Source: an uncultured virus (IMG/VR IMGVR_UViG_3300013132_000038) (lineage: Duplodnaviria; Heunggongvirae; Uroviricota; Caudoviricetes). From it: DNA of 20,000 bases. Of the stretch, positions 1,020-20,000 are shown one piece after another. The notes under the pieces were generated by a model. It saw nothing but the letters and a program-made list of their open reading frames with translations. It was not told the origin of the DNA and searched no databases. Both the position numbers and the translations under genes were made by a program. The stretch is taken from IMG/VR virus record IMGVR_UViG_3300013132_000038, one strand, 5' to 3'. Position 1 is the first letter of the stretch. Every line of letters starts with the position of its first letter.

Positions 1020-1022
1020 GTG

Positions 1023-1030
1023 GATATATA
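1023..1030 (+). promoter_or_regulatory. candidate late promoter GATATATA
   Basis: Same motif recurs at 3377, 7377 and 15687 (GATAAATA at 18643 and 2130); lies directly after the terminator and 7 nt before ATG 1038. Confidence 0.5.
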
Positions 1031-1037
1031 CTTAAGT

Positions 1038-2270
1038 ATGAAAAATAAATTATTACCTTGGATAATAGCATTATCTGCTTTATCTGTTTCTGGATCGGCT
1101 GCTTTTTATTCAGTATCTGGCTTGGGTAAAATGTTTGCCGGAGCATCTTTACAGGTTATGGTTTTAGCCGGAAGTTTAGAATTTGCAAAACTAGTTACTG
1201 CTTCCCTCCTATATCAATATTGGAGAAAGCTTAATTTGGGACTAAAGGTTTATCTTTCCTTAGCAACTGTTATATTAATAATTATAACATCTGCTGGTAT
1301 ATATGGGTTTCTATCTTCAGCTTACCAAGAAACATCATTCAAAGTTCAAAACCAGGATAAAAATATAGAGATTCTGGATAAAAATATTTCCATAATACAG
1401 ACCGAAATAAAGAACTTCGAATCCCAAATAAATCAAAAAAGCGACAGGTTAGGTCAGTTAACAACAATAAGGACAAATCTTCAATCGACGCAAGACGTTC
1501 TTATAGAGAAATCAAAATCAACTAATGCTGTTAGACAACAAATAAAAGAAGTCGAATCTGAAATAAAAAGAATGGATTCAGAAATATCAGTGTTAAATGA
1601 TTCAATATCATCTAAAAATACAAGAGTATCATCTATAGAACAACAAAAGTTAGGGATATCGTCCAATGCAGATCTTGCTAAGGAGGTAGGTCCTCTAAAG
1701 TATATTTCAAAATTAACAGGGAGTGACATAGACAATGTGGTTAACTGGTATATAATTGTGTTAATGCTTGTTTTTGATCCGCTAGCTATTGCTTTAGTTA
1801 TTGCAGCAAACTTTGCATTTGAGATAAATGAAAAGAGAGATAAAAAAGAGGAAGAAATGAAAGAAAAAGAAGATGGAGTGATAAAAAGACTATGGTCTAA
1901 AATAACAAGATGGAGAACTAAGAGTAAGGACACAGAAAAAGAAATTATTGTGTCTCAAGAAGTAAAAGCACCAGAAGAAGATCGGATCGATACAAATACT
2001 GATGATATAATAGCTTCTGATAATCAGTTAGATTTATTTGATACTACTCCAGAAGTCACTGTTCAAGAAGTTAAAGAAAAAGTATTGGATAATGATGATA
2101 AAAATTCAGGGAATAAAATAGAGGAACAGGATAAATATAATACTGATCAAAACAACAGCGAGAGAGTAAAAAGTAGCAGAGATAAATTCAGGGGAAATCC
2201 TGATATTAAAAGCTCTAGAGAAGGAATCAGAAATAATACAGGGGACACAAATCCCTTAAATTTAAGATGA
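1038..2270 (+). CDS. membrane protein: N-terminal TM helices, long coiled coil, further TM helix, charged tail
   Basis: Hydrophobic stretches (WIIALSALSVSGSAAFYSVSGL; LQVMVLAGSLEFAKLV; VYLSLATVILIIITSAGIYGFLS), a heptad-rich middle, then WYIIVLMLVFDPLAIALVIAA. ATG 1038 is preferred to the track's GTG 1020, which abuts the terminator U-tract. Confidence 0.75.
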   Translation: MKNKLLPWIIALSALSVSGSAAFYSVSGLGKMFAGASLQVMVLAGSLEFAKLVTASLLYQYWRKLNLGLKVYLSLATVILIIITSAGIYGFLSSAYQETSFKVQNQDKNIEILDKNISIIQTEIKNFESQINQKSDRLGQLTTIRTNLQSTQDVLIEKSKSTNAVRQQIKEVESEIKRMDSEISVLNDSISSKNTRVSSIEQQKLGISSNADLAKEVGPLKYISKLTGSDIDNVVNWYIIVLMLVFDPLAIALVIAANFAFEINEKRDKKEEEMKEKEDGVIKRLWSKITRWRTKSKDTEKEIIVSQEVKAPEEDRIDTNTDDIIASDNQLDLFDTTPEVTVQEVKEKVLDNDDKNSGNKIEEQDKYNTDQNNSERVKSSRDKFRGNPDIKSSREGIRNNTGDTNPLNLR

Positions 2271-2851
2271 TAGGAAAAGTTTATACAACAGATCAAAGGT
2301 ATGTAAAATATCTAGAATGCAATCCTGCTGTTTATAGGAGGGTTTATTTCCAGTCTTGTAATTTAGACGTAAAAGAGGGTTCGAATATTCTTACCACTGT
2401 CTCCCTCTGTGATTTTAAACTAGAATCGCTAGGAAGCTCAGAATTAGGTGGATGTGGAGGGTCTGGTAAAAAAACTGCAACTTTAGGTCCATTAGGAACA
2501 TACACGTTAACCTCTCCTGAAATCGGGCAAGCACAAGGAGAAGTGCAAATGATAGTAGTTAAAGTCAGGTATGAAAAATCATGGGTAGAAGAGGAAAGAT
2601 ATTTAAACTGGGAATACAAAGGAAACATATATCCTTTGCACACCTTGATGGTGCTAACCGGAAGAACTGAGGCAGAAATACCATGGCAAGGATGGGATCT
2701 TAGCTATTATTCAAATAACCCACCTAGCCCAGATTTTAGTCCTCAGCCATACCCAGTAATAACTTCGCCTAATCTTTCTTTTGGGGGAATACTTTTCAGC
2801 AATCCCAATGATTCAAAAAGTGCTGAACTAGAAATATTTATTTTTAACTAA
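2267..2851 (+). CDS. hypothetical beta-rich protein, paralog A (possibly virion structural)
   Basis: 194-aa ORF; ATGA overlap with upstream gene; colinear similarity to the next ORF. Confidence 0.75.
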   Translation: MIGKVYTTDQRYVKYLECNPAVYRRVYFQSCNLDVKEGSNILTTVSLCDFKLESLGSSELGGCGGSGKKTATLGPLGTYTLTSPEIGQAQGEVQMIVVKVRYEKSWVEEERYLNWEYKGNIYPLHTLMVLTGRTEAEIPWQGWDLSYYSNNPPSPDFSPQPYPVITSPNLSFGGILFSNPNDSKSAELEIFIFN

Positions 2852-3342
2852 TGGCTACACCACCCCTAGTATGTGATCCAATCCAATTTGAAGGAGCTAT
2901 TTTTCAAAGATGTAATCTTCAGGTTATTAGAGGAACAACTGTTATTAAAGAGATGAGCCTCTGTGATACAATCATCGAAATTGGAAATTACTCAAGTTTT
3001 AGTGGATGTGTGTACGGAAATTCAAGTCTAGTTTTAAACTCTGAGGGAATGGGGGAACTCTGTTTTATAATGATTAAAGCATCATATCCTACTACACTAC
3101 CAGTTTCTAGTAGATTTATAAACATAATATACAATGGTGCATACCTTCCTATGTCAAATCTTACTATATTAACAGGAAATCCTTCCGATTTATCACCATA
3201 TACGAATAACAGGGGATGGGACTTAGATCCGAACGGTAGCGACATAGAATCGCCATTTTTTAGCAATGGAGGGATGATTCTTTATAATCCGCATTCGGTT
3301 AGAGTAAACGTGGATGTTATTTTAGGCGGGAGTATTCAATGA
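2851..3342 (+). CDS. hypothetical beta-rich protein, paralog B
   Basis: 163-aa ORF; TAATG overlap; shares FQxCNL, SLCD, LTG, GWDL and GG-x-x-x-x-NP motifs with 2267..2851. Confidence 0.75.
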   Translation: MATPPLVCDPIQFEGAIFQRCNLQVIRGTTVIKEMSLCDTIIEIGNYSSFSGCVYGNSSLVLNSEGMGELCFIMIKASYPTTLPVSSRFINIIYNGAYLPMSNLTILTGNPSDLSPYTNNRGWDLDPNGSDIESPFFSNGGMILYNPHSVRVNVDVILGGSIQ

Positions 3343-3376
3343 GAGATAAAAATACATAGAAAGTTTAATTAAGTAA

Positions 3377-3384
3377 GATATATA
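3377..3384 (+). promoter_or_regulatory. candidate late promoter GATATATA
   Basis: Intergenic; motif starts 27 nt before ATG 3404. Confidence 0.55.
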
Positions 3385-3403
3385 CTAAAAAAGCGAATAA
3401 CAA

Positions 3404-5722
3404 ATGGAAAAAAATATTAATCCAGAGATCAATAGATTAAATATGGAGACTTCTAGAAACGCAGCAGATTCTCTTAGAGAATGGGCTGGTTTAGGATCAG
3501 AAAAAAAACCTGTTGCATCTACTTTCCTTGGCGGATCAACAGCTCAAATGCTTAAAGAATCGCAAAACTTTGATATTTCAGGACGATCTAAAAGTAACGT
3601 TGTTTTTAGTTTTGGACTAATCAATACTGTTTCTGCCTTAAAAAATTCTTCATTAGGGGATCTTCCTGCAGGTAAGATCCTTCTCGAAAAATATGAGCAC
3701 CTATTATTAGGAAAAGGTATTTCAGAAGCTTTTATAATTGAAGGACTTTTAAATGATCTTAAATCTTTCTCCTGGGAAAATTCAGTAGCTCCAGTTTTAG
3801 AAAATTTAGAAAGGATCTTTGAAAACAGAAGAAGAGAAATAGAGGTTGTTAAAGCATACGAATCTATTAAAAATGCACCAGGAAGAGAACTTTTTTCTGA
3901 TGCTACTGGGCAAATGAAAAATTGGTTACTTGCAGAGAACAAATCAAGCGATACTCTTATACATGGACTTAAAAGCTTTGGATTTAATCCAATGGTTAGA
4001 AATTTAGTTAGCTTTTTATCTCTTTATGAAAACGATAACAGCGGTAAATTCCATGTGGGATTTGATAATAATGTTTGTAAAATAGATAATCTTTACTCGC
4101 CAATATCAGTTAGTGAAAGCGAAACATTATTTTATTCTTCTGGTAAATTTTTAAAGATAGAACACGAATCGGGAATTATCCAAGAATGTAACATTGACGA
4201 GATCCCAGACGAACTTGCAGATAAGGCTCAAATAGTTAGCGATAGAGACGTAAAAATTGAAGACAATAAGATTTCATTAAACATTGGAAACAACAAGGTA
4301 GAGATCACATTTACAAACGAATCTAAAGAGATTTATTTTGATGGTAAAAGAATAAACGAAGAGGATCTTCCAGTTGCAGTTAGTGTTAGTACTAACAATC
4401 TTTTAGAAAGCTCTAATCATAAGATTAATAAAGCAGTTTTCGTAGCTAAATCTGCTGAGGAAATCGTTGATATAGATTTTGGTAAAAAAATAAGATCTAA
4501 AGTATACGAAAACGTAGAGGTTAATCTATTTAAAACAGAAGCTGGTATTTATGTTCAAACTGTTAATCCAGCTATGAGATTAAATAAAATCTACGAGGCA
4601 AATGCAACTCAAGCAATTAAAATTGTTAAGGATTTTATTAAATATGACATCTCTGAATCTTTAACAGAATTCTTAGAAGGAGAACAAGCTTTCTTAAGCG
4701 TAATGAAAAACGACAAGAACGAGATAGTTAAAAACGTAGAGATTCTAGAAAACCAGCTTAGAAAATTAGATATAGCTAAAAGAGAAAATCCTTTACTTGC
4801 TAACTCAGAAGAACTTATCACATTAGAAGAAGGTATTCATAATGAGATTTCAGCTCTTCAAGACAGATGGAATCAAATTAACCTTGAGATCTCTAGATTT
4901 GAAAACAGAGCAAAAGAGGTTCCTTCGGTTAATGAAGATTTAGGTTATCCAATCGATACTGAGGTTAGAATTAAAAGAAACGGAAATAAAGGAAGAGTGA
5001 TTGGAGTAGACGGAAGCTCTAAAACTTATACTATTCTTTTTAAGGAAGGTAAAACTGGAGAATACTTTTTCTCCGATGTAGAAGACTTAGACGATGAGAT
5101 TGACCGATATGACATTAAAGCACCAGATCTTGATTTAGAATACACTAACGAGTCTAATCAAAACTTTGCTAATGCTCCAGGCAACAGAGGCGGATCACAC
5201 AAAGATTCTAGAATAGAAGCTCTTTCCAAAAAACACATGGCACATGCTCCAGACAAAAAAACTGGATCTTCGTCTAAGTTTATAAACAACGAGAAAGGAA
5301 CTATGGCAGGTTTACCTAAGAGTGGTAAATCAGCTCCATTAACAGGAAGAGGAGTTAATTCTAAATCTGCTAATATGGCAGATCTTCCTAGCAAAGGAAA
5401 AGGAGGAAGCGGTAAAAAATTCATAGACAATCTAGAAAATTTAGATCTTGCTAAAGCACCGAGTGCTTCTTTAAAAGGGTCTGCTAAATTTATTCAGGAT
5501 CTTAAGAATATGAATTTAGCTACTCTTAAGGAGAGCCAAAAGAATTCACACGTAGAAAAGGCACCTAAAGGTAAATCTGAAAAGTCTAAGAAATTTATCG
5601 AAGACGAAGACGATTTTAACTTTGCAGATGCTCACGGAAACAGCAAAAAGAATGGAAAAAGATTTGCAGAAAATGACAAAGTAGCAAATCTTTCATCTGC
5701 ACCGAAGACAAAAAAAAAGTAA
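3404..5722 (+). CDS. large hypothetical protein, probable head/internal protein with coiled coil, SH3/KOW-like domain and basic C-terminal repeats
   Basis: 772-aa ORF upstream of head genes; coiled coil followed by YPIDTEVRIKRNGNKGRVIGVDGSSKTYTILF (SH3/KOW-like by eye) and repeated AxAP...KFI units. Function is inference. Confidence 0.6.
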   Translation: MEKNINPEINRLNMETSRNAADSLREWAGLGSEKKPVASTFLGGSTAQMLKESQNFDISGRSKSNVVFSFGLINTVSALKNSSLGDLPAGKILLEKYEHLLLGKGISEAFIIEGLLNDLKSFSWENSVAPVLENLERIFENRRREIEVVKAYESIKNAPGRELFSDATGQMKNWLLAENKSSDTLIHGLKSFGFNPMVRNLVSFLSLYENDNSGKFHVGFDNNVCKIDNLYSPISVSESETLFYSSGKFLKIEHESGIIQECNIDEIPDELADKAQIVSDRDVKIEDNKISLNIGNNKVEITFTNESKEIYFDGKRINEEDLPVAVSVSTNNLLESSNHKINKAVFVAKSAEEIVDIDFGKKIRSKVYENVEVNLFKTEAGIYVQTVNPAMRLNKIYEANATQAIKIVKDFIKYDISESLTEFLEGEQAFLSVMKNDKNEIVKNVEILENQLRKLDIAKRENPLLANSEELITLEEGIHNEISALQDRWNQINLEISRFENRAKEVPSVNEDLGYPIDTEVRIKRNGNKGRVIGVDGSSKTYTILFKEGKTGEYFFSDVEDLDDEIDRYDIKAPDLDLEYTNESNQNFANAPGNRGGSHKDSRIEALSKKHMAHAPDKKTGSSSKFINNEKGTMAGLPKSGKSAPLTGRGVNSKSANMADLPSKGKGGSGKKFIDNLENLDLAKAPSASLKGSAKFIQDLKNMNLATLKESQKNSHVEKAPKGKSEKSKKFIEDEDDFNFADAHGNSKKNGKRFAENDKVANLSSAPKTKKK
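5713..5719 (+). other. slippery heptamer A_AAA_AAG (candidate -1 ribosomal frameshift site)
   Basis: In-frame codons ACA AAA AAA AAG TAA (5708-5722); X_XXY_YYZ pattern in the correct phase, as in E. coli dnaX and IS3-family elements. Confidence 0.65.
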
Positions 5723-5970
5723 ATAGACAATCAATAAGTGAGTCTATTGCCAAAGACCCAGACGAGGGAGTTGGTAATAGACTCAATTTTGTTTTAGATG
5801 ATTTGAAAAATTGTCTGGAAAAAATAAAAGAATTAGAAACTTCTAGTGAAGAAAACGGTAAGATAGGTATAGACACAATTAGAAATTCGAGGAAAAATTT
5901 GGAAGAATTAAGGGTTAATTTAGAACAACAAATAGAAAAGCTCCAAAATAATATCCCCGAACAAGAATGA
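5719..5970 (+). CDS. ATG-less -1 frame extension (83 aa, coiled-coil-like) of the 772-aa gene
   Basis: Frame is open 5677-5970 with no ATG: VNRQSISESIAKDPDEGVGNRLNFVLDDLKNCLEKIKELETSSEENGKIGIDTIRNSRKNLEELRVNLEQQIEKLQNNIPEQE*. It fills the whole gap, and its TGA overlaps the next ATG. Confidence 0.6.
   Translation, partial: VNRQSISESIAKDPDEGVGNRLNFVLDDLKNCLEKIKELETSSEENGKIGIDTIRNSRKNLEELRVNLEQQIEKLQNNIPEQE
5739..5785 (+). other. RNA hairpin, 15-bp stem
   Basis: TGAGTCTATTGCCAA (5739-5753) pairs with TTGGTAATAGACTCA (5771-5785) with one G-U pair; the loop also holds CCC/GGG; followed by ATTTTGTTTT. Confidence 0.75.
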
Positions 5971-6323
5971 TATACGTAAAAAACAAAGAGCTAAAAAGAG
6001 CTCTTCTTGAAAGCAAAGAAAAAGGTCAATTAACTGACGAGACCGTTAAAATGTTTACTCTTATAGTAAACGGTATGTCCAAGACACATTCCTATAGAGA
6101 TAACGAAGACAGAGAAGATTGTATATCTTCCGGACTAGAAGACTTAGTTAAATACTGGAATCGCTATGATCCCGCTAAATCTGATAATCCTTTTGCCTTT
6201 ATATCTCAGATAGCACACAATGGAATGAAGAAGGGATGGAAAAAAATACATCCGCCAAAATCACCTAAGACTATTCCATTTTCGAGAATAGTTAAGGAAG
6301 AGAATTCCAATTATAATGTATAA
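5967..6323 (+). CDS. gp55: T4 gp55-like late transcription sigma factor (short)
   Basis: YVKNKEL...LIVNGMSK...EDCISSGLEDLVKYWNRYDPAKSDNPFAFISQIAHN matches the gp55 pattern YVNNKEL...DMIxDGIE...NFDxxKxxNPxAYxTQ. Confidence 0.8.
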   Translation: MIYVKNKELKRALLESKEKGQLTDETVKMFTLIVNGMSKTHSYRDNEDREDCISSGLEDLVKYWNRYDPAKSDNPFAFISQIAHNGMKKGWKKIHPPKSPKTIPFSRIVKEENSNYNV

Positions 6324-6325
6324 GT

Positions 6326-6811
6326 GTGGATATAAAAAAGCTAAAGCCCAACGGTAAATGGGATTCTGGTAAATATTCTCCAGTTAATCCGGAAAAATAT
6401 ATTGGGGATATACATAGTATAATTTATAGAAGCTCTTGGGAAAGAAAGTTTTGTCAGTATTGCGACATTAATCCAAACATAACTAAATGGAGTTCAGAGC
6501 CCACTAGTATTCCGTATTGGTCTCCTATCGACAAGAAAGAGCACAAATATTTTGTAGATTATTACATTCAAGTAAAAAAAGAGGATGTATTTGAAAACTG
6601 GTTAATTGAAATAAAGCCAGAGGACCAATATGCTCTACATAAGAGACCTAAAGAACCAGTAGGAAATCTAACAGAGAAAAAAATAAGGTCTTATAACGAT
6701 AAACTTAAAACCTGGATAACAAATAGGGCTAAGTTTGAAGCGGCAACAAGATTTGCTGAATCTAGAGGATATAAATTTGGGGCTATCAACGAAAGCTTTA
6801 TATTGAGATGA
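6326..6811 (+). CDS. gp4: T4 gp4-like head completion nuclease (TnsA-like fold)
   Basis: GKYSPVNPEKYIGD...IIYRSSWERKF...WSSE...IPYWSPID...YFVDY...IEIKP: characteristic gp4 motifs; GTG start. Confidence 0.88.
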   Translation: MDIKKLKPNGKWDSGKYSPVNPEKYIGDIHSIIYRSSWERKFCQYCDINPNITKWSSEPTSIPYWSPIDKKEHKYFVDYYIQVKKEDVFENWLIEIKPEDQYALHKRPKEPVGNLTEKKIRSYNDKLKTWITNRAKFEAATRFAESRGYKFGAINESFILR

Positions 6812-7404
6812 TGCAGCCATTTAGAAAAAGCTTCGAGGAATATAAACTTTCAGTTTCAGGTTTATCCTCTCTCCGGGAAGAAGCTTTTATGCACTGGGTA
6901 AAAAATTACATCAATAAGAATTCACAGTTTAATCCCCTAAATTTTTTACAAGGAAAAGTTTACTCCTTTGCTTATAATGATAAATTAGAACATGGAAAAA
7001 AATTCATAAACAAAAGACCTGTAATTTTTTTTACAGGATATGATAATTATGAGAAAAAAAATCTATTCAATGGACTAGATCTTGTTTTAATCTCCCCTAT
7101 TTTTAGACTATCTTTTTTTGAAAGACTGCAAAGTGTATTCCATGATCAGATAGAAAGAAACTTAAAAAAAGAAGAAAATGGGGAGGGAAGAGATCAAGTT
7201 CCACTTAGGACGGAGTATCAAATAATGGAAACAATCCTTAAGGGTATTCCCTATAAACATGCCTACAGATCATGGGATTTAAAAAAAGTTAGGGATGTTA
7301 TGGAAATTCCTTTTGAAGATTGGACTAGAATAGTATATCTGGATACTCGATCAATTGAAGGGACCCAGTTAAATGAGATATATAATAAAAATTCACAAGT
7401 CTAA
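6808..7404 (+). CDS. gp2: T4 gp2-like DNA end protector protein
   Basis: GKVYSFAY...RPVIFF...FNGLDL...P..RL...HAYRSW...IPFEDW pattern, and adjacency to gp4. Confidence 0.65.
   Translation: MMQPFRKSFEEYKLSVSGLSSLREEAFMHWVKNYINKNSQFNPLNFLQGKVYSFAYNDKLEHGKKFINKRPVIFFTGYDNYEKKNLFNGLDLVLISPIFRLSFFERLQSVFHDQIERNLKKEENGEGRDQVPLRTEYQIMETILKGIPYKHAYRSWDLKKVRDVMEIPFEDWTRIVYLDTRSIEGTQLNEIYNKNSQV
7377..7384 (+). promoter_or_regulatory. candidate late promoter GATATATA
   Basis: Inside the 3' end of the gp2-like gene; starts 27 nt before portal ATG 7404, the same offset as at 3377. Confidence 0.55.
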
Positions 7405-9020
7405 TGGCTGGATTTACCGACGATAAAAAATCATTCTTTAGCTCTATTATAGACAGTATAAAGAAAGTGGGTAGTTTTGGAATGGCTTATGAAGATCTTG
7501 TTGTAAAGAATTCGCAAGCTGTAGGTATAACAGAAGCTCAATTTCTACAAAAAGGTGGGATTAAAGATGAATCTTTCCTATTCGGTTTAAGAAGGGCTGA
7601 TACCACTACTAAACAGTACATAGCTTATTTCGACAAGGACTATAAAAACAAAAGGCATTATTTACAAGGATTTGCACAGAATCCTGAAATCGAGTTTATA
7701 TTAGACACAATATGTGACGAGTCAATAGTTTATGACGAAAAAAACTTCTGGGCTTATTTCTCTTTTATGCAACATGATGATGTTGATGATGAAACATACG
7801 AAAAAGTTCAGAAAAGATATAAAGAGATTTATAATCTGTTTGGGTTTAATCAGGATATTTCAGCGTGGCATTTATTTAGAAAATTTCTAGTAGATGGTAT
7901 AATAGCATTTGAAATAGTTTTCGACAAGAAAGGAAAAAATATAGTAGGATTTAAAGAACTAGATCCCTGGTCTTTAATTCCAACAGTAGAAGCACAGCCA
8001 GACGGTTCTTTTATTGATATTTGGATACAGTATCCAGACAATCCATCATTAACAAGAAAACTTTACGATTCTCAGATAATTTATATAAGTTATGCTAAAG
8101 GCGGAGGAACATCCTCTAGAGTTAGTTATTGTGAAAGAATGATTCGTTCTTTTAATCTTCTAAGAATAATGGAGCACACAAGAATTATCTGGAACGTAAT
8201 GAATTCCTCATATAGGATGGCAATGACAGTTCCCATTGGTACTAGATCGCCACAAAAAGCAAAACAAACTCTAGGAGAGTTAATGTCTATATACAAAGAG
8301 GATATAAGACTTAATACTGATAGCGGAGAACTAAGTATAGACGGTAGACCAAAGATTCAATTCTTTAAGAACTATTTAATGCCTTCCTCCCCTAATGGTA
8401 CTCCAGATATACAGCCACTTCCAGGAGGAGGAGATGCCACAGCATTCTCCGATACTACAGTTCTCAAATACTTTGCAAATAAATTGAGAATGGATTCAAA
8501 AATACCCGCTACTAGATTTGGTAGAGAGGAATCGGGGTCTGAAGGAACTATCACTTTCACCGCAGAAGGATTAGATCAAGAAGAGGTTAGGTTTGGTAAA
8601 TTTATAAACAGACTAAGATCAATTTATCAAGAAATATTAATGAAGCCTTTATGGGTTCAGTTCTGCTTAGATTTTCCGCATCTTAAAAAAGATCATATAA
8701 TAAAATCTGAATTCGGTCTAGACTATGTGAAAGAAAACATGTTTGGGGAAGCTAAAGAAATGGAAGTTCTAACTGCAAGAAAAGATCAGGTAATTAAGAT
8801 ATCTGCCCTTATGAATTCTGCAGGGAAAAAATACTTTAGCATGGATTTCTTAGTTGATCGATGGCTAGGAGTAAAAGGACAAGATTTAATTAGTAACAAA
8901 AAAGCTAAAGAGAAAGCGGCGGAGGCTAAGAAGAAAGCTGCAGAAGCTGAAAGTGGAGCTACTGGAGCAGAAGGAGCTACTGGAGCAGAAGGAGGAGGAG
9001 GAGATGAATTTACACTATAA
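7404..9020 (+). CDS. gp20: T4 gp20-like portal protein, copy 1
   Basis: 538 aa; PEIEFILDTICDESIVYD, FRKFLVDG, ELDP, FNLLRIME...IIW, KIPATRF, EEVRFGKFINRLR...ILMKPLWVQ, matching T4-type portal motifs. Confidence 0.85.
   Translation: MAGFTDDKKSFFSSIIDSIKKVGSFGMAYEDLVVKNSQAVGITEAQFLQKGGIKDESFLFGLRRADTTTKQYIAYFDKDYKNKRHYLQGFAQNPEIEFILDTICDESIVYDEKNFWAYFSFMQHDDVDDETYEKVQKRYKEIYNLFGFNQDISAWHLFRKFLVDGIIAFEIVFDKKGKNIVGFKELDPWSLIPTVEAQPDGSFIDIWIQYPDNPSLTRKLYDSQIIYISYAKGGGTSSRVSYCERMIRSFNLLRIMEHTRIIWNVMNSSYRMAMTVPIGTRSPQKAKQTLGELMSIYKEDIRLNTDSGELSIDGRPKIQFFKNYLMPSSPNGTPDIQPLPGGGDATAFSDTTVLKYFANKLRMDSKIPATRFGREESGSEGTITFTAEGLDQEEVRFGKFINRLRSIYQEILMKPLWVQFCLDFPHLKKDHIIKSEFGLDYVKENMFGEAKEMEVLTARKDQVIKISALMNSAGKKYFSMDFLVDRWLGVKGQDLISNKKAKEKAAEAKKKAAEAESGATGAEGATGAEGGGGDEFTL
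8955..8990 (+). repeat. 18-nt tandem duplication in the tail of portal copy 1
   Basis: GGAGCTACTGGAGCAGAA x2, encoding GATGAE twice. Confidence 0.9.
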
Positions 9021-9026
9021 AATAAA

Positions 9027-10649
9027 ATGGCTGGATTTTTAGATAAATTAGGAAAAATAAACCCCAATATCTCCAGGATATTAAAAACTATTAGTGGACT
9101 AGGGTCTTTTGGGATGGAATACAAAGATATGGTTATCCAAGACTCAATGGCAATCGGTGTATCTGAAGCCAACATGAGAGAAAGATTTGGATTTACTGAT
9201 TCTGATGAGGATTTTATCTATAGTATAGCAGCTCAGGACACTTCCAATAGAAAATACATAGCATACTTCGATAAGGATTATCCATTTAAAAGAGATTTTC
9301 TTAGAACTTTTGCTTTAAATGCTGAAATAGAATACATCTTAGACACTATCTGTGATGAAGCAATAGTTTACGATGAAAAGAACTTCTTTTGTCATCCTGC
9401 TTTGATGAATATGGATCTTAAGGATGACGTAATAAAAGCTTTAAGAAATAATTTTAGAAAATTATACGTATTACATAACTTTGCCAATGGACTTACTGGA
9501 TGGCAATATTTTAGACAATTAATAGTAGAGGGATTTCTTGCCTTTGAAATCATATACTCTAATGACGGAAAAGAGATAGTAGGTTTTAAAGAATTAGACG
9601 CAGTTAGTTTAACCCCCGCTGTTGAAAAAAAACCCGACGGAACTAGAGAAACCATATGGTGGCAATATTACGGAGAAACTGTAAGACAAAGAAAACTTCT
9701 AGATGCACAGGTTATCTACATATCGTATGCTAAAGCAAACGTAGTTTCTAGAGTTTCATATACCGAAAGACTTATAAGATCCTATAACTTGTTAAAAATC
9801 ATGGAGCATTCCAGAATAATCTGGAACGTAATGAATGCCCAATATAGAATTAAGATGACGGTTCCTATTGGTAGTAAAGCTCCACAAAAAGCTAAAGAAA
9901 CATTGGGAGAGCTTATGTCTGTCTATAAGGAGGATATTAAGCTTGATACGACTTCGGGGGAGCTTTCAATAAACGGTAGACCTGATATACAATTTTATAA
10001 AAACTATTTATTCCCACAACAAGGGGGTGAATCGGTTAAAATCGAAACATTAAACGCACAGGGTCCAAATTTAAATATTATGGACTCAGTAGTTTATTTC
10101 TATAACAAATTAAGACAAGACTCTAAAATTCCTTATAATAGATTCTCATCTAGATTTGGTGTCGGATCTAACAATGTATTTAAAACTGCTGCAGATGGAG
10201 CAGAAAGGGACGAAGTTAGATTTGCTAAGTTTATAACACGTCTTAGGTCTATATTTCAAGAGATCGTTGTTAAACCCCTATGGATTCAAATGTGTCTCGA
10301 TTTTCCAGATCTTAAGAATGATTCAGAATTTAGAAGTCAGATAGGTGTTAAATTCGAAAGCGATAACATATTCGGGGAATCTAGAGAGATAGAGCAATTA
10401 ATAAAGAAAATAGATTTTATAACATCTATGGGCGAAATCAAAGAAACTGTAAACGAAGAAGAAGTACAGTTCTTTGACCAGGATTTTATGATAGAGAGAT
10501 GGCTAGATTTATCATACGATGATATACAATTAAATAAGTCATACGTAAAAAAAGCTGAAGAATCTGGAAAATCTGCAGCGACAGGAGCGACAGGAGGAGA
10601 CGCAGCAGCAGGAGATGAAGCAGCAGGGGGAGCTGAAGCAGCAGTATAA
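9027..10649 (+). CDS. gp20: T4 gp20-like portal protein, copy 2
   Basis: 540 aa; AEIEYILDTICDEAIVYD, YNLLKIMEHSRIIW, KIPYNRF, RDEVRFAKFITRLRSIF...KPLWIQ; colinear with copy 1. Confidence 0.85.
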   Translation: MAGFLDKLGKINPNISRILKTISGLGSFGMEYKDMVIQDSMAIGVSEANMRERFGFTDSDEDFIYSIAAQDTSNRKYIAYFDKDYPFKRDFLRTFALNAEIEYILDTICDEAIVYDEKNFFCHPALMNMDLKDDVIKALRNNFRKLYVLHNFANGLTGWQYFRQLIVEGFLAFEIIYSNDGKEIVGFKELDAVSLTPAVEKKPDGTRETIWWQYYGETVRQRKLLDAQVIYISYAKANVVSRVSYTERLIRSYNLLKIMEHSRIIWNVMNAQYRIKMTVPIGSKAPQKAKETLGELMSVYKEDIKLDTTSGELSINGRPDIQFYKNYLFPQQGGESVKIETLNAQGPNLNIMDSVVYFYNKLRQDSKIPYNRFSSRFGVGSNNVFKTAADGAERDEVRFAKFITRLRSIFQEIVVKPLWIQMCLDFPDLKNDSEFRSQIGVKFESDNIFGESREIEQLIKKIDFITSMGEIKETVNEEEVQFFDQDFMIERWLDLSYDDIQLNKSYVKKAEESGKSAATGATGGDAAAGDEAAGGAEAAV

Positions 10650-10735: not shown

Positions 10736-12061
10736 ATGCAGAAAGAACTTAGAATCCTGTTAGAGATAGAAAATGCAACAGGAAACGGATCACAAAAAAT
10801 TAAACAGGATCTTATAAAAAACAATTATTCTAAAGAACTAGAATATCTACTCAAGGTTTCCCTTGATCCATTTCTCACTACTAAATTACATAAACTTCCC
10901 GTCCTATCAGATTCTCCATATATCTTAGAGACTGAAGATATTTTTGAAAGGTTTAAAGATCTCACTAGAAAGCTTTTTGAAGCACCAGCTGCCAATGACA
11001 AGTTAAGAGAGGAAGCATTCGAATTGGTTAACTGCTATCCGCTTTCAGAGGAGGAAAGAAAGATTTTGTCTAAAGTTTTAACAAAAAGATTAAACATAGG
11101 TATCGGAGCTAAGTTAATAAACAAAGCTTTTAATAAGGAGGTTATACCAGATCCCAGTTTAATGCTTGCACAGGATGACGAAGACGAAATAAAAAAATGG
11201 GATTCCATAGTCTGTGAAGAAAAATATGATGGAGTAAGAGTAATTGCATTAGTTGTTGGAGAAGAAGTAAAGTTTTACACTAGAGCATTCAATGAGATAC
11301 CAAATCAATATTTAAAAAAGATCGCAGACGAGTGCTTGATCTTAATTAAGAACTCAGGATTACAAGGAGGATGGTTTTTCGACGGCGAACTTACTGATCT
11401 AAACAGAAAGAGTGTTTCTGGTAAAGTAACACAAATGCTAAAGGGTAAACCTTCGGATTCTATCGGTGATGATCTTCTTTATAACGTTTTTGATCTAGAG
11501 GATGCAGATAGTCTAAAAAATGGCAAAGGAATCATACCTTTTGATGTGAGAAGAGGCACATTAGAGGGTGTTTTTAATACGTATAACACATCTTCTCTTA
11601 CACTTGCAGATTCTTTCTTGACTACAGAAAAAGAAGACATCTACGCTTACTATAATAAAATAGTTGCCCGGGGTGGCGAAGGGGTAATTCTTAAAAACCC
11701 AGAACACGTATATGAGTGTAAAAGATCTAAGAATTGGATTAAACTCAAGGAGGTTAACGATTGCGATTTAATAATTACTGGATGGTACCCTGGAGAAGGA
11801 AAGAGGGAAGGATTTATCGGGGGATTCTATTGTGAGGATTTATCTGGCACAGTTAAAGTAAAAGTAGGAGCTGGTTTTACAGATCAAGATCTTAAGGATC
11901 TTAGTGAAAATCCAGATTCACAGATTGGTAAAGTTTGTGCTATCCAGTATAATGTTATTATCAACGACAAAAATGATAATTGGTCTCTGTTTTTACCAAG
12001 ATTTATAGAAATAAGAAATGATAAAGATTTAGCAGACGATATGAGAGGTTTATGTAAATAG
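10736..12061 (+). CDS. lig: ATP-dependent DNA ligase (T4 gp30-like)
   Basis: Motif I EEKYDGVR, motif III FFDGEL, IIIa VFDL, IV GEGVILK, V WIKLK, and C-terminal OB domain ending SLFLPRF..IRNDK. Confidence 0.95.
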   Translation: MQKELRILLEIENATGNGSQKIKQDLIKNNYSKELEYLLKVSLDPFLTTKLHKLPVLSDSPYILETEDIFERFKDLTRKLFEAPAANDKLREEAFELVNCYPLSEEERKILSKVLTKRLNIGIGAKLINKAFNKEVIPDPSLMLAQDDEDEIKKWDSIVCEEKYDGVRVIALVVGEEVKFYTRAFNEIPNQYLKKIADECLILIKNSGLQGGWFFDGELTDLNRKSVSGKVTQMLKGKPSDSIGDDLLYNVFDLEDADSLKNGKGIIPFDVRRGTLEGVFNTYNTSSLTLADSFLTTEKEDIYAYYNKIVARGGEGVILKNPEHVYECKRSKNWIKLKEVNDCDLIITGWYPGEGKREGFIGGFYCEDLSGTVKVKVGAGFTDQDLKDLSENPDSQIGKVCAIQYNVIINDKNDNWSLFLPRFIEIRNDKDLADDMRGLCK

Positions 12062-14137: not shown

Positions 14138-15267
14138 TGATAACAGTTTGTGTGGATGGAAACTATATTTTCCATAAGACCTTTGGTATATTTTCTGGAT
14201 TTGGATCAAAGAATCCGGGTGACATTTTATCATCAGATGCCGAAAGAAATATGTTTGTAAGAAAAGTAATTACAGACTTGTGTTATGCTTTAAAACAGAT
14301 ACCTGATGTAAAGCAAGTGATATTTTGTAAAGACTCTAGATCATGGAGAAAAGATTATAAAATTACCAGGAGTGTATATAAAGAAAGCAGAGTAAAAGGA
14401 GAAGGTGTAGATTGGGGATCTTTTTTTAAACTCATGGATGAATTTTCTGAATATTTAGAATCTAATGGTTTTATTTATAGTTCGTACCAAGGAGCGGAGG
14501 GAGATGACTTGATATGGGCATGGTGCGAGCACCTATCAGAAAAGGGAGAATCTGTAATAGTAATAAGTGGTGACAAGGATATGCACCAACTTGTTAGGTA
14601 CGATGATTTATCGTGGGTGGGTATATGGAACAGTAATTCCAAAAACAACAAATTAATAGTTTCTGAAAACTGGAAAGGTGAGTTAGAAACAGAAACCACT
14701 ATATTTGATGTGGATCCTATGTCTGGTTCTAATTCATCAAAAATGGAAAAACTATTATCTTCGTGTACTTTGGAAAAGATCAACACAAAAGAATATATTT
14801 TTAAGAAAATCCTAATGGGAGATAAAAAGGATGATGTTCCTGGGGTATTTCCTCACCAAACTAAAAATGGTAAAAATTCTAACATAGCAGAAGGGAAAGC
14901 TAATAAAATATGGGGGCTTTACCTAGAGTCTGAATGGAGAGATTATTCCATGGAGTATCTTTGGGATAATGACGACTTTCTAGGCTGGATATCTGGATTA
15001 TCATTGAGACTTGTTTCACAAACGGATAATTCAGAAAATAGAGAGAAATTTAAAAAATTCTATGAGGAGAATGCTAGATTGGTTTGGCTAAATTCAAGAT
15101 CACTGCCTAGAAATATGGTAGAGGGATTAAGAAATCATGTACAGGAATTAGATATAAAGGAAAGACTTTTGCTAAATATGGATAAAAAAGAAATGATTGA
15201 AAAATCACCATGGGCTAGTGAAGCTAAGCCACCTAAAGGATTTGATCCATTTGAACTATTTAACTAA
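14137..15267 (+). CDS. rnh: 5'-3' exonuclease / T4 RNase H-like flap nuclease
   Basis: VDGNY, DSRSWRK, YKESR, EGDDLI, SGDKDMHQL and MGDKKDDVPGV: the acidic motifs of the FEN/Pol I 5'-nuclease family. Confidence 0.88.
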   Translation: MITVCVDGNYIFHKTFGIFSGFGSKNPGDILSSDAERNMFVRKVITDLCYALKQIPDVKQVIFCKDSRSWRKDYKITRSVYKESRVKGEGVDWGSFFKLMDEFSEYLESNGFIYSSYQGAEGDDLIWAWCEHLSEKGESVIVISGDKDMHQLVRYDDLSWVGIWNSNSKNNKLIVSENWKGELETETTIFDVDPMSGSNSSKMEKLLSSCTLEKINTKEYIFKKILMGDKKDDVPGVFPHQTKNGKNSNIAEGKANKIWGLYLESEWRDYSMEYLWDNDDFLGWISGLSLRLVSQTDNSENREKFKKFYEENARLVWLNSRSLPRNMVEGLRNHVQELDIKERLLLNMDKKEMIEKSPWASEAKPPKGFDPFELFN

Positions 15268-15668
15268 TGAATAATCCATTTGATATAATAAAATCTTTTT
15301 ATTCTAAATCGTGGAATAAAATAAACGATAGGGACAAATCTAGAAATTTATTTATGATTAACAGGATATGTTCAATAGCTTATCCTTTACAAGCAAATTC
15401 TTTTAATAACATAAAGATAAATCCGGATAAGGTTGTTGATTTTTGGAAAGTTTTTATAACCAGTAAGCATAAAACTGTTCCGCCTTGGATATGGACAAAG
15501 ACTCAAAAGAAAGAGAAAGATGAAAAGAAAAAAGAATATAAGGAGGAAGTAATAAACTTTATAAAAGACAGGTATCAGATATCAAATAGAGAAATAGAGG
15601 AGCTAAAAACCTTTTATCCAACTAAATTCAATAATTTTTATAAGGAGATTGAAACGCTTCTAAGTTAG
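15267..15668 (+). CDS. probable clamp loader small subunit (T4 gp62-like)
   Basis: NPFDIIKSF...FMINRICS...W..K....K...INFIKDRYQISNRE resembles the gp62 family pattern (PFD...FMINR.LS...KW.K...IK.YY..S); size 133 aa; near gp44. Confidence 0.5.
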   Translation: MNNPFDIIKSFYSKSWNKINDRDKSRNLFMINRICSIAYPLQANSFNNIKINPDKVVDFWKVFITSKHKTVPPWIWTKTQKKEKDEKKKEYKEEVINFIKDRYQISNREIEELKTFYPTKFNNFYKEIETLLS

Positions 15669-15715: not shown

Positions 15716-18616
<2,901 letters not shown>

Positions 18617-18642
18617 TCCTTGACATTAATAAAAAATTAAGG

Positions 18643-18650
18643 GATAAATA
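18643..18650 (+). promoter_or_regulatory. candidate late promoter GATAAATA
   Basis: Intergenic, starts 31 nt before ATG 18674; one base from the T4 late consensus TATAAATA. Confidence 0.5.
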
Positions 18651-18673
18651 TACTATTAAAAAATAAAAATTAG

Positions 18674-20000
18674 ATGCCTCAAATATCCAGATTACCAGTA
18701 ACTATGATCGCAAGCGTCGAGCCCGGATCAGTTACTGTTAATAGTTACTATAATAATCCATCTAGTGTCTGGGACGGGTTTCCATCAAGTTTTGATTGCA
18801 CATTAAATTTAATAGCAACTCCTACATCACAGGAGCCTAATTTTACTTTTGATGCTAACGATCTAACAGTAGGCATGTGGTTTTTACAGCCTAATGGTAA
18901 TGCTTTTTCGATAACCGATATTAATGTTATCAATAACTTAGAAGTAGACGTAACTTTAAAAGATGTAGATCTTTATAATCTAGTAAGTGACTACACAGTA
19001 TCCGGTAATAACTACCCAACAGAGGGTATAAATGGAATAACATTTGAGGTATCCGAAGATGGTGCTCCTGTAACGGCTTTAATAGCAACTGCACTAGCCC
19101 CAAATCTAGACGAAAATGGATACTGGATAGATGATGCGTTAGCCAGATTTCAATTTAGAAACATAGTTAAAGCTAGCTATACGAACGTTTTTTCCCCCAA
19201 TCCAACATATTCACTATTTAATGTAGGCCAAGTTGTTTATTTAGACATTTACGGTGTTTTTGATATAGTAGACACAACATCATTAACAGAGGTAGAAAAA
19301 GCATTCGGAGTTATAACATCGATAGATGAGCCCGAATCGGGAAATATAAACGTTAGGCCCTTCGGTAGAATAGTAACGACACCTTTTATTTTACCAGGAA
19401 ATATTGGCGAAGTATTATATTTTGATAATAGTGTTACTCCTTCCTATGTTACTAATGTTAAACCAGTAGTAAACCCAATACCAGTCTATATTAAAATAAG
19501 TGACTATGTTGGTTCTTATTTGTACCCTGCACAAGGGAGTGGGTCAGGAACAACATCAGGAACCAGCGGAACATCTGGTATAGATGGATCTTCTGGAACT
19601 TCGGGAACGGACGGAACTAGCGGATCTTCTGGGGCATCAGGAACTAGTGGATCCTCAGGAACAGATGGAACTAGTGGAAGCTCAGGATCTTCAGGAACAA
19701 GTGGATCTAGTGGATCTTCGGGGACAAGTGGAAGCTCGGGATCTTCAGGAACAAGTGGATCTTCAGGAACAAGTGGATCTAGTGGATCTTCGGGAACAAG
19801 TGGAAGCTCAGGATCTTCAGGAACAGACGGAACAAGTGGATCTTCAGGAACAAGTGGATCTAGTGGATCTTCGGGGACAAGTGGAAGCTCAGGATCTTCA
19901 GGAACAAGTGGATCTAGTGGATCTTCAGGAACAAGTGGAAGCTCAGGATCTTCAGGAACAAGTGGAAGCTCAGGATCTTCAGGAACAGACGGAACAAGTG
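18674..20000 (+). CDS. structural/fibre-like protein with Gly-X-Ser repeats, 3'-truncated
   Basis: Not in the ORF track because it has no stop. Manual translation MPQISRLPVTMIASVEPGSV...YWIDDALARFQFRN...VRPFGR...YPAQGSGSGTTSGTSGTSGIDGSSGTS... stays open to the window end. Confidence 0.85.
   Translation, partial: MPQISRLPVTMIASVEPGSVTVNSYYNNPSSVWDGFPSSFDCTLNLIATPTSQEPNFTFDANDLTVGMWFLQPNGNAFSITDINVINNLEVDVTLKDVDLYNLVSDYTVSGNNYPTEGINGITFEVSEDGAPVTALIATALAPNLDENGYWIDDALARFQFRNIVKASYTNVFSPNPTYSLFNVGQVVYLDIYGVFDIVDTTSLTEVEKAFGVITSIDEPESGNINVRPFGRIVTTPFILPGNIGEVLYFDNSVTPSYVTNVKPVVNPIPVYIKISDYVGSYLYPAQGSGSGTTSGTSGTSGIDGSSGTSGTDGTSGSSGASGTSGSSGTDGTSGSSGSSGTSGSSGSSGTSGSSGSSGTSGSSGTSGSSGSSGTSGSSGSSGTDGTSGSSGTSGSSGSSGTSGSSGSSGTSGSSGSSGTSGSSGSSGTSGSSGSSGTDGTS
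19559..20000 (+). repeat. 9-nt-unit tandem repeat encoding GTS/GSS/GTD
   Basis: About 49 units such as GGAACAAGT, GGAAGCTCA, GGATCTTCA, GGATCTAGT, with recurring 27-nt higher-order blocks. Confidence 0.95.

Follow-up and report, generated by a model that had tools for sequence, protein, structure and literature searches.

Two diverged T4-type portal genes kept in tandem by a clade of uncultured huge phages

Two portal genes at one locus

The stretch of DNA analysed here (20,000 nucleotides of IMG/VR record IMGVR_UViG_3300013132_000038, hereafter the window) comes from an uncultured, distant T4-like huge phage and contains two adjacent portal genes of the T4 gp20 type, termed portal A and portal B. 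As the most conserved machine found in tailed phages and herpesviruses, the portal nucleates capsid assembly, serves as the docking site of the packaging motor, controls the passage of DNA and connects to the tail. To our knowledge, all portals solved to date consist of 12 identical subunits arranged in a ring. Two diverged portals retained under very strong selection break this one-portal rule at the genetic level, and the conservation of both genes suggests, without amounting to proof, a DNA-entry ring composed of two kinds of subunit.

Portal A is an open reading frame (ORF) at positions 7404–9020 encoding 538 amino acids (aa), and portal B is an ORF at positions 9027–10649 encoding 540 aa; both lie on the plus strand, begin with ATG and encode a protein with the N-terminal sequence MAGF. 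The junction between the A stop and the B start (9018–9029, plus strand) reads cta TAA aat aaa ATG, with 6 nucleotides (nt) from stop to start and an unchanged reading frame. BLASTP aligned the two proteins colinearly from residue 1, with 255/519 identities (49%), 67% positives, 13 gap positions and an E value of 6e-179. The alignment contains the motifs YIAYFDKDY, ILDTICDE, IMEHxRIIWNVMN, PQKAKxTLGELMSxYKEDI, DSKIP, EVRFxKFIxRLRSI and CLDFPxLK, and neither gene contains an internal stop or frameshift. An earlier reading of the window, made from the DNA letters alone (the sequence-only reading), had described two full-length, diverged gp20-like genes in tandem, and the BLASTP alignment, the junction and the family matches given below confirm every detail of that description.

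Both proteins match the T4 portal family from end to end. Against the Pfam profile Portal_T4 (PF07230, cut-off 22.9 bits), A scored 199.8 bits (profile positions 8–431 of 433) and B scored 201.1 bits (9–431), and both also matched the portal family phrog_213. T4 gp20 chains were matched by sequence with E values of 3.1e-13 (A) and 1.8e-17 (B), and PF07230 was the sole family matched in 85/85 sampled members of the clade described in the next section. The AlphaFold2 model of A drew on 85 aligned sequences and reached a mean predicted local distance difference test (pLDDT) score of 66.2 and a predicted template-modelling (pTM) score of 0.51, with low confidence in the clip and the tunnel loop. 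When this model was compared with the PDB using Foldseek, the top 13 ranks were T4 gp20 chains (9MKB, 9LU7, 6UZC, 9LU6 and 3JA7), with E values of 2.4e-16 to 7.1e-13, a probability of 1.00, template-modelling scores of about 0.41–0.54 and roughly 450–490 aligned columns, followed by portals of other phages. The sequence-only reading had allowed that one copy might not adopt a portal fold; such a fold is predicted for A from the model, and a portal fold for B is inferred from its 49% identity to A together with its Pfam match. Both A and B are predicted to encode functional gp20-type portal subunits.

The likeness to T4 lies in the end-to-end PF07230 matches of both copies, in the best structural matches of the A model and in the position of the pair among T4-type head genes (gp2 and gp4) and the gene for the gp55 late sigma factor. 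However, T4 has a single gene 20, whose product is described as a homododecamer in the gp20 structure paper (PMC4493910), whereas two diverged genes are found here. Identity to T4 gp20 is only 16–18% over the structural alignment, the N-terminal MAGF motif is missing from T4, and A lacks the Arg and Thr of T4 positions 398 and 349, respectively.

Distribution, constraint and age of the pair

Five scans of IMG/VR yielded 349 loci, in which each stop-to-stop ORF of at least 200 aa was assigned against A and B by script. For the adjacency counts, duplicates were removed, at least 700 nt of room was required, and the start of B had to lie no more than 60 nt downstream of A. Under this definition, B was found directly downstream in 132 of the 134 distinct A genes, and A directly upstream in all 131 distinct B genes. 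The 2 exceptional A genes (loci L223 and L056) are the upstream halves of an A gene split by TAG, with B still present after the second half. No portal-like ORF was observed on the opposite strand among the IMG/VR loci classified. The 225 complete pairs reduced to 117 unique ones, in which the intergenic gap ranged from -1 to +23 nt and both proteins started with MAGF in 107. A single fused A-B protein produced through a recoded stop was rejected, because the stop between the genes is TAA in the window and in 114 of the 117 unique pairs (TAG in the other 3).

The pair persists in branches whose A protein is only 52–56% identical to that of the window, and it was identified on contigs of 430, 373, 349, 344, 290, 250, 245 and 219 kb. 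Three contigs rated 100% complete, two of them with terminal repeats, contained exactly two portal matches each, adjoining one another, and two portal genes per genome were found in 5/5 large contigs of the clade. Every sampled clade member therefore keeps both portals, adjacent and within one packed block, in genomes of up to at least 430 kb.

The ratio of nonsynonymous to synonymous substitution (dN/dS) was calculated by the Nei-Gojobori method with our own script over 27 non-overlapping genome pairs. Median values were 0.017 for A and 0.020 for B, with maxima of 0.077 and 0.056, and A exceeded B in 10/27 pairs (Wilcoxon p 0.148). The two copies are thus under equally strong purifying selection, and the relaxed selection that the sequence-only reading had considered for one of them was seen in neither. 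When A and B of the same genome were compared over 25 diverse genomes pooled, the proportion of synonymous differences (pS) was 0.62–0.77 in every domain, including saturated values of 0.74–0.76 in the stem and clip; in the window, the two genes have no nucleotide word in common that exceeds 18 nt. Since synonymous sites are saturated, the amino-acid motifs common to the two copies are held by selection and not by gene conversion, which is ruled out as the source of the stem and clip similarity by the pS of 0.74–0.76 in those domains. Between the window and locus L277, dS was 0.81 for A and 0.53 for B, yet the proteins were 98–99% identical (dN 0.006–0.008).

These counts bear on the reading that the pair is an artefact or a stage of decay, that is, a chimeric assembly repeat or a redundant copy becoming a pseudogene. 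In its favour, L223 and L056 each carry a single in-frame TAG inside A. Such cases amount to only 2 of the 134 distinct A genes, dN/dS is about 0.02 in both copies, and the pair occurs in more than 130 distinct gene versions and on contigs of up to 430 kb. Furthermore, no assembler would confuse A with B, because they are only 49% identical with saturated synonymous sites. We consider this reading extremely improbable, and effectively refuted by dN/dS, synonymous saturation and the adjacency counts. The sequence-only reading had taken the pair for an old duplication with both copies retained and not for an assembly repeat, and it had named absence from relatives as evidence to the contrary. 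Its view is borne out by the pair in 132/134 A and 131/131 B genes, by mirror-image trees (see below), by synonymous saturation and by dN/dS, and every relative within the clade carries the duplication.

The two in-frame TAG codons are located at L223:5601–5603 and, in L056, at codon 333 of the frame that starts at 1527. The codon in L056 occupies the position of a Ser kept in 110/111 A copies holding that word, while the one in L223 falls at a variable site. They are probably errors or rare variants, read-through of TAG being a less likely reading. The portal frames of the related Lak phages carry 10–14 in-frame TAGs.

Outside the clade, a single portal was the common arrangement. Among 912 GenBank phage records with a portal match, 910 had the match in one place, the exceptions being LR756501 and LR756503. 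In LR756501 (735 kb), positions 15166–15351 of the minus strand hold a 22-bit fragment of the last ~58 portal-profile positions, within a 101-aa open frame and far from the real portal. The best GenBank phage matches were LR756500 (462 kb) at 43% identity, LR756501, LR756502 and LR756504 at 33–35%, Prevotella Lak megaphages at 35–36%, and PTm1 and PAU at 28–29%. Additionally, a set of single-copy IMG/VR loci (the S set, L308–L349) was 42–46% identical to both copies and slightly nearer to B, with one portal in 34/34 loci that extend at least 700 nt on each side. The single-copy huge-phage portals (LR756500, LR756501/2/4, Prevotella Lak and the S set) are the closest relatives of the pair, at 33–46% identity, and share with it a MAGF or MASY-type N-terminus and the gp55-gp4-gp2-portal gene order; they differ in being encoded by one gene and in branching outside the A+B clade. 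In the S set, LR756500 and Lak, the lone portal occupies the slot after gp55-gp4-gp2. As this order is common to the single-copy relatives and the pair-bearing clade, the duplication occurred in place.

Two trees were used to date the duplication relative to these lineages. In a tree of 93 rows, the B clade (31 rows, support 100) and the A clade (54 rows, support 96) were sisters (support 85), with Lak and the LR7565xx phages outside. A second tree of 69 rows was inferred under a site-heterogeneous model, as a quick posterior mean site frequency (PMSF) tree, and comprised 25 diverse two-copy genomes, 10 single-copy IMG/VR relatives, 8 named outgroups and T4. Here the A clade received a support of 99 and the B clade of 90, both with identical internal splits of 10+15 and 7+8. 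Patristic distances within the A and B subtrees were correlated at r 0.977 over 300 genome pairs, with a slope of 1.09; subtree lengths were 7.37 and 7.81, and 13/23 clades were identical between the subtrees. Across the related phages, the A and B clades therefore mirror each other. The S set grouped with LR756500 outside A+B in the 69-row tree, and forcing both together with B cost 45.7 log-likelihood units in an approximately unbiased (AU) test (p-AU 0.0045), the alternative having been named after the tree had been seen. The possibility that the S set is a B ortholog whose A was lost was ruled out by this test (p 0.0045). According to the trees and gene order, the pair goes back to a single ancient tandem duplication, which took place in the common ancestor of this large group of uncultured huge phages.

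One further locus, L306, carries a lone portal (L306:1448–3139) on a branch of length 0.95 that forms a three-way split with the A and B clades. A second copy is absent within 1.4 kb upstream and 1.1 kb downstream, the gene has an apparent non-ATG start before AGFLDRF, and a gp4 homolog lies on the opposite strand. This locus may represent a lineage branching near the duplication or a secondary loss of one copy.

Divergence between the copies and a possible mixed ring

Domain limits given in the T4 gp20 structure paper (PMC4493910) were transferred to A and B through mutually agreeing HMMER and MAFFT alignments. Within genomes, A-B identity was 67% in the stem, 57% in the clip, 54% in the wing, 44% in the N-terminal part, 32.5% in the tunnel loop and 30% in the crown. 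In the A/B alignment, 129 columns hold the same residue with at least 90% conservation in both copies, and only 5 are strict fixed differences. Fixed differences at the level of residue class number 8, with no charge reversals; single-copy relatives are 100% class-conserved at all 8, and the change occurred in A at five (A64, A71, A331, A338 and A462) and in B at three (B196, B351 and B457). At the clip tip, N291, M292, R295 and K296 are listed as the T4 residues that contact the terminase gp17 (PMC4493910); the corresponding positions read T/R/Q/K in A and S/K/Q/K in B, and Lys alone matches T4. The clip-tip motif (S/A)PQKAK is kept in both copies and in L306. By alignment with T4, both copies appear to keep the surfaces directed at the capsid, at the terminase or neck, and at the adjacent subunit.

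Two of the 8 class-level differences, at a Thr and an Asp described below, lie beside the DNA channel. The ETL and ERDE motifs of single-copy portals are retained in B. The R-D-E motif at the tunnel-loop end is intact in B, whereas A is without the Arg (Gln in 59% of weighted members; Q392 in the window). This residue, T4 position 398, is present in 5/5 nearer and 3/3 distant single-copy outgroup lineages, T4 included. The Thr aligned with T4 T349 is kept in B and replaced by Pro in 100% of A members (P338 in the window); in the structure paper, T349 is equated with SPP1 T319, whose mutation impairs packaging (PMC4493910). A also carries a 2-residue insertion beside the channel loop. A channel-loop Asp shows the opposite pattern, being kept in A and replaced by Val or Ile in B. 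Deeply conserved columns number 103: both copies keep 59 of them, B alone keeps 3, A alone 0 and neither copy 4, while 37 are mixed. Because B keeps deeply conserved residues that A replaced (3 versus 0), B is best described as the conservative copy and A as the derived copy.

This imbalance could also mean that B is the sole true portal and that A is a portal-derived accessory, such as an assembly initiator or chaperone, a plug or valve partner, or an immune-sensor decoy. Host defence systems that sense portal proteins exist, and the idea of a decoy comes from them. The three residues replaced only in A, the loss of its near-universal tunnel-loop Arg, the Pro at the position equivalent to that of the packaging-impairing SPP1 mutation and the insertion beside the channel loop are all compatible with such a role. 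However, A is constrained as strongly as B by dN/dS and is predicted to keep the clip tip, the stem helices, the wing, the N-terminal motif and the full portal fold, and B has itself left the ancestral class at three sites, including the channel-loop Asp that A keeps. We regard an accessory role for A as quite unlikely.

In our favoured reading, to which we assign a probability of roughly 45%, A and B together build one mixed dodecameric portal ring, such as an alternating A6B6 ring. Of the three functions raised by the sequence-only reading (a heteromeric ring, two specialised vertices and alternative head types), the heteromeric ring is the most economical. As a rule, co-expressed paralogs that descend from a homo-oligomer cross-assemble as long as their interfaces have not been insulated from one another. 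A and B are expected to be made together from one gene block, and they appear to retain the same partner-facing surfaces (the N-terminal MAGF motif, the wing, the stem helices, the clip strands and the PQKAK clip tip), so that they would most likely enter one ring. Co-production, the lack of insulating differences, a single set of partners and the cross-assembly rule together argue for this arrangement. B would supply the canonical DNA-channel residues and A the remodelled inner-clip, channel and tunnel loops, and an A6B6 ring would have 6-fold instead of 12-fold chemical symmetry. The obligate co-retention and co-divergence expected of a heteromeric ring are both observed (132/134 and 131/131; r 0.977). 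More doubtful is a stricter version, in which alternation as A6B6 is obligate, B carries the canonical DNA-valve residues and A the remodelled loops, and the step from 12-fold to 6-fold symmetry takes place inside the portal. The T4 neck stack is described as a gp20 12-mer followed by a gp13 12-mer and a gp14 6-mer (PMC12929587).

The copy number of other virion genes bears on whether the two proteins may instead form separate rings. In 5/5 large contigs of the clade, we observed one Terminase_6N match, one prohead protease match and one full-length gp23 match each; in the three complete genomes, a further but weak gp23 match (about 300 aa) may represent a vertex paralog. With one terminase, one protease and one full-length gp23 per genome, two parallel capsid or packaging systems are unlikely, and the alternative head types that the sequence-only reading had entertained are disfavoured. 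These single copies likewise stand against the reading in which A and B each form a homo-dodecameric ring with a distinct job, for example one at the packaging and tail vertex and the other at a different vertex or in the capsid interior, or each in different particles or at different assembly stages. Independent rings with the same partners would also need the full portal architecture and the clip-tip and wing motifs that both copies keep. Divergence is concentrated in the tunnel loop (32.5%) and the crown (30%), which face the DNA and the capsid interior, and the remodelled channel loops of A could tune a second ring for another DNA-handling task. On the other side, adjacent co-production and the small number of fixed interface-type differences (5 strict, 8 at class level, without charge reversals) give no sign of insulation, and a tailed phage with two portal rings was not found in the literature searched. 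Two separate rings seem unlikely to us.

Several points weigh against the mixed ring. The presumed contact between A and B within one ring is deduced from sequence comparison, and the same partner surfaces would be equally expected in both copies if each formed its own ring. Reciprocal loss between A and B is weak, as the signature of complementary loss amounts to 3 residues kept only in B versus 0 kept only in A among the 103 columns, and to 5 versus 3 changes at class level. The universal tunnel-loop Arg lost from A could mean a departure from the canonical portal role. No natural A-B fusion scored among 4,558 candidates of 943–2,690 aa, which is weak evidence in the same direction. Finally, LR756500 (462 kb) and Lak (~540 kb) manage with one portal; since relatives of similar or larger size have a single copy, a large genome as such does not demand two portals.

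Known systems offer partial parallels to a mixed ring. T4 gp23 and gp24 are paralogs and provide a T4-like precedent in which a head gene was duplicated and the copies specialised for non-equivalent positions in one assembly. Their sites in the capsid shell are geometrically distinct (hexamers versus pentameric vertices), whereas the subunits of a portal occupy equivalent places in its 12-fold ring. In fungi, the proteolipid ring of the V-ATPase is a hetero-oligomer that evolved from a homo-oligomer through gene duplication, and co-assembly has been demonstrated there. The suspected logic is alike, in that a ring subunit is duplicated, the copies are co-expressed and both become indispensable; for the portal pair, co-assembly is proposed and reciprocal loss is weak. 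In the full-text literature searched, we found no description of a duplicated or heteromeric portal, as matches to "two portal proteins" compare the portals of different phages. The passages on portals in a jumbo-phage review (PMC7824862) and in the main text of a paper on huge phages (PMC7162821) likewise make no mention of portal duplication.

If the A6B6 ring is correct, neither tailed phages nor herpes-like viruses would offer an earlier known case of a heteromeric portal, and the 12-to-6 symmetry step made in the T4 neck, where the gp13 12-mer sits on the gp14 6-mer, would be made inside the portal itself. A mixed ring would furthermore provide a natural experiment on symmetry mismatches (12-fold versus 5-fold and 6-fold), would tell apart the channel-loop residues that all 12 subunits require from those required in only 6, and would constitute a case of a homo-oligomeric machine turning hetero-oligomeric.

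Neighbouring genes and other features of the window

The portal pair forms the end of a packed block of genes in the order gp55-gp4-gp2-A-B, in which gaps or overlaps do not exceed 6 nt. The first gene of the block, on the plus strand at 5967–6323, encodes a gp55-like late sigma factor (phrog_234, 2.6e-16; Pfam Sigma70_r2) and is syntenic in all inspected pair-bearing loci and in the single-copy outgroups. It is followed after 3 nt by the gene for a gp4-like head completion (head closure) protein (6326–6811, plus strand; phrog_218, 2e-45), which matches the N-terminal domain of Tn7 TnsA-like endonucleases (Pfam Tn7_TnsA-like_N, 2.2e-17). A gp2-like DNA end protector (6808–7404, plus strand; phrog_429, 2.2e-10) shares 4 nt with the gp4-like gene and its final base with the start of A; in PTm1, the DNA end protector likewise lies just upstream of the portal. 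No terminator-like site was detected on the plus strand within 5967–10649, in line with joint production of A and B; terminator and sigma-70 scans remained at chance level. The T4 late promoter consensus, TATAAATA, had 3 matches, all on the minus strand, against 3.7 expected by chance.

Downstream of B, after a gap of 86 nt, lies the gene for an ATP-dependent DNA ligase (10736–12061, plus strand; phrog_114, 7.6e-82), and DNA ligase was the next gene after portal B in 11/13 pair-bearing loci inspected. The downstream region of the window comprises, from this ligase onwards, a gp44-type clamp loader, a guanylate kinase, an RNase H-like exonuclease and two collagen-repeat tail-fibre genes.

Regarding the neck and tail, the large contigs G002–G006 each contained one weak match to a T4 neck protein (gp13/gp14), above the cut-off in 3/5 and located close to the terminase gene, inside an ORF of 724–836 aa. 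These phages may have a neck that differs in construction from that of T4. The tail-tube profile PF06841 had no match anywhere, controls included, and the terminase C profile PF17289 matched 5 control genomes and 0/5 phage contigs; both are uninformative on copy number.

No tRNA genes were found in the window, and a search for clues to the host identified no relative in 185,579 cellular genomes. Two sequencing runs, available as contigs from libraries of uncertain kind, gave 7 pieces of 183–418 nt at a depth of 2–4, which are uninformative on transcription or habitat.

Upstream of the block, window positions 1020–5722 contain four consecutive ORFs (416, 194, 163 and 772 aa) without a Pfam or PHROG match. 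The last of these, the 772-aa ORF at 3404–5722, has a homolog just upstream of gp55 in 13/13 inspected pair-bearing loci, at 27–95% identity, and LR756500 matches it weakly (23% identity). It represents a conserved protein, possibly a virion protein. All long ORFs of the window lie on the plus strand. The window is AT-rich, with a GC content of 0.29–0.37 up to 16 kb. GC rises to 0.385–0.46 at 15716–20000, where the two collagen-repeat tail-fibre-like genes are located (966 aa, and more than 442 aa for the one that runs off the window).

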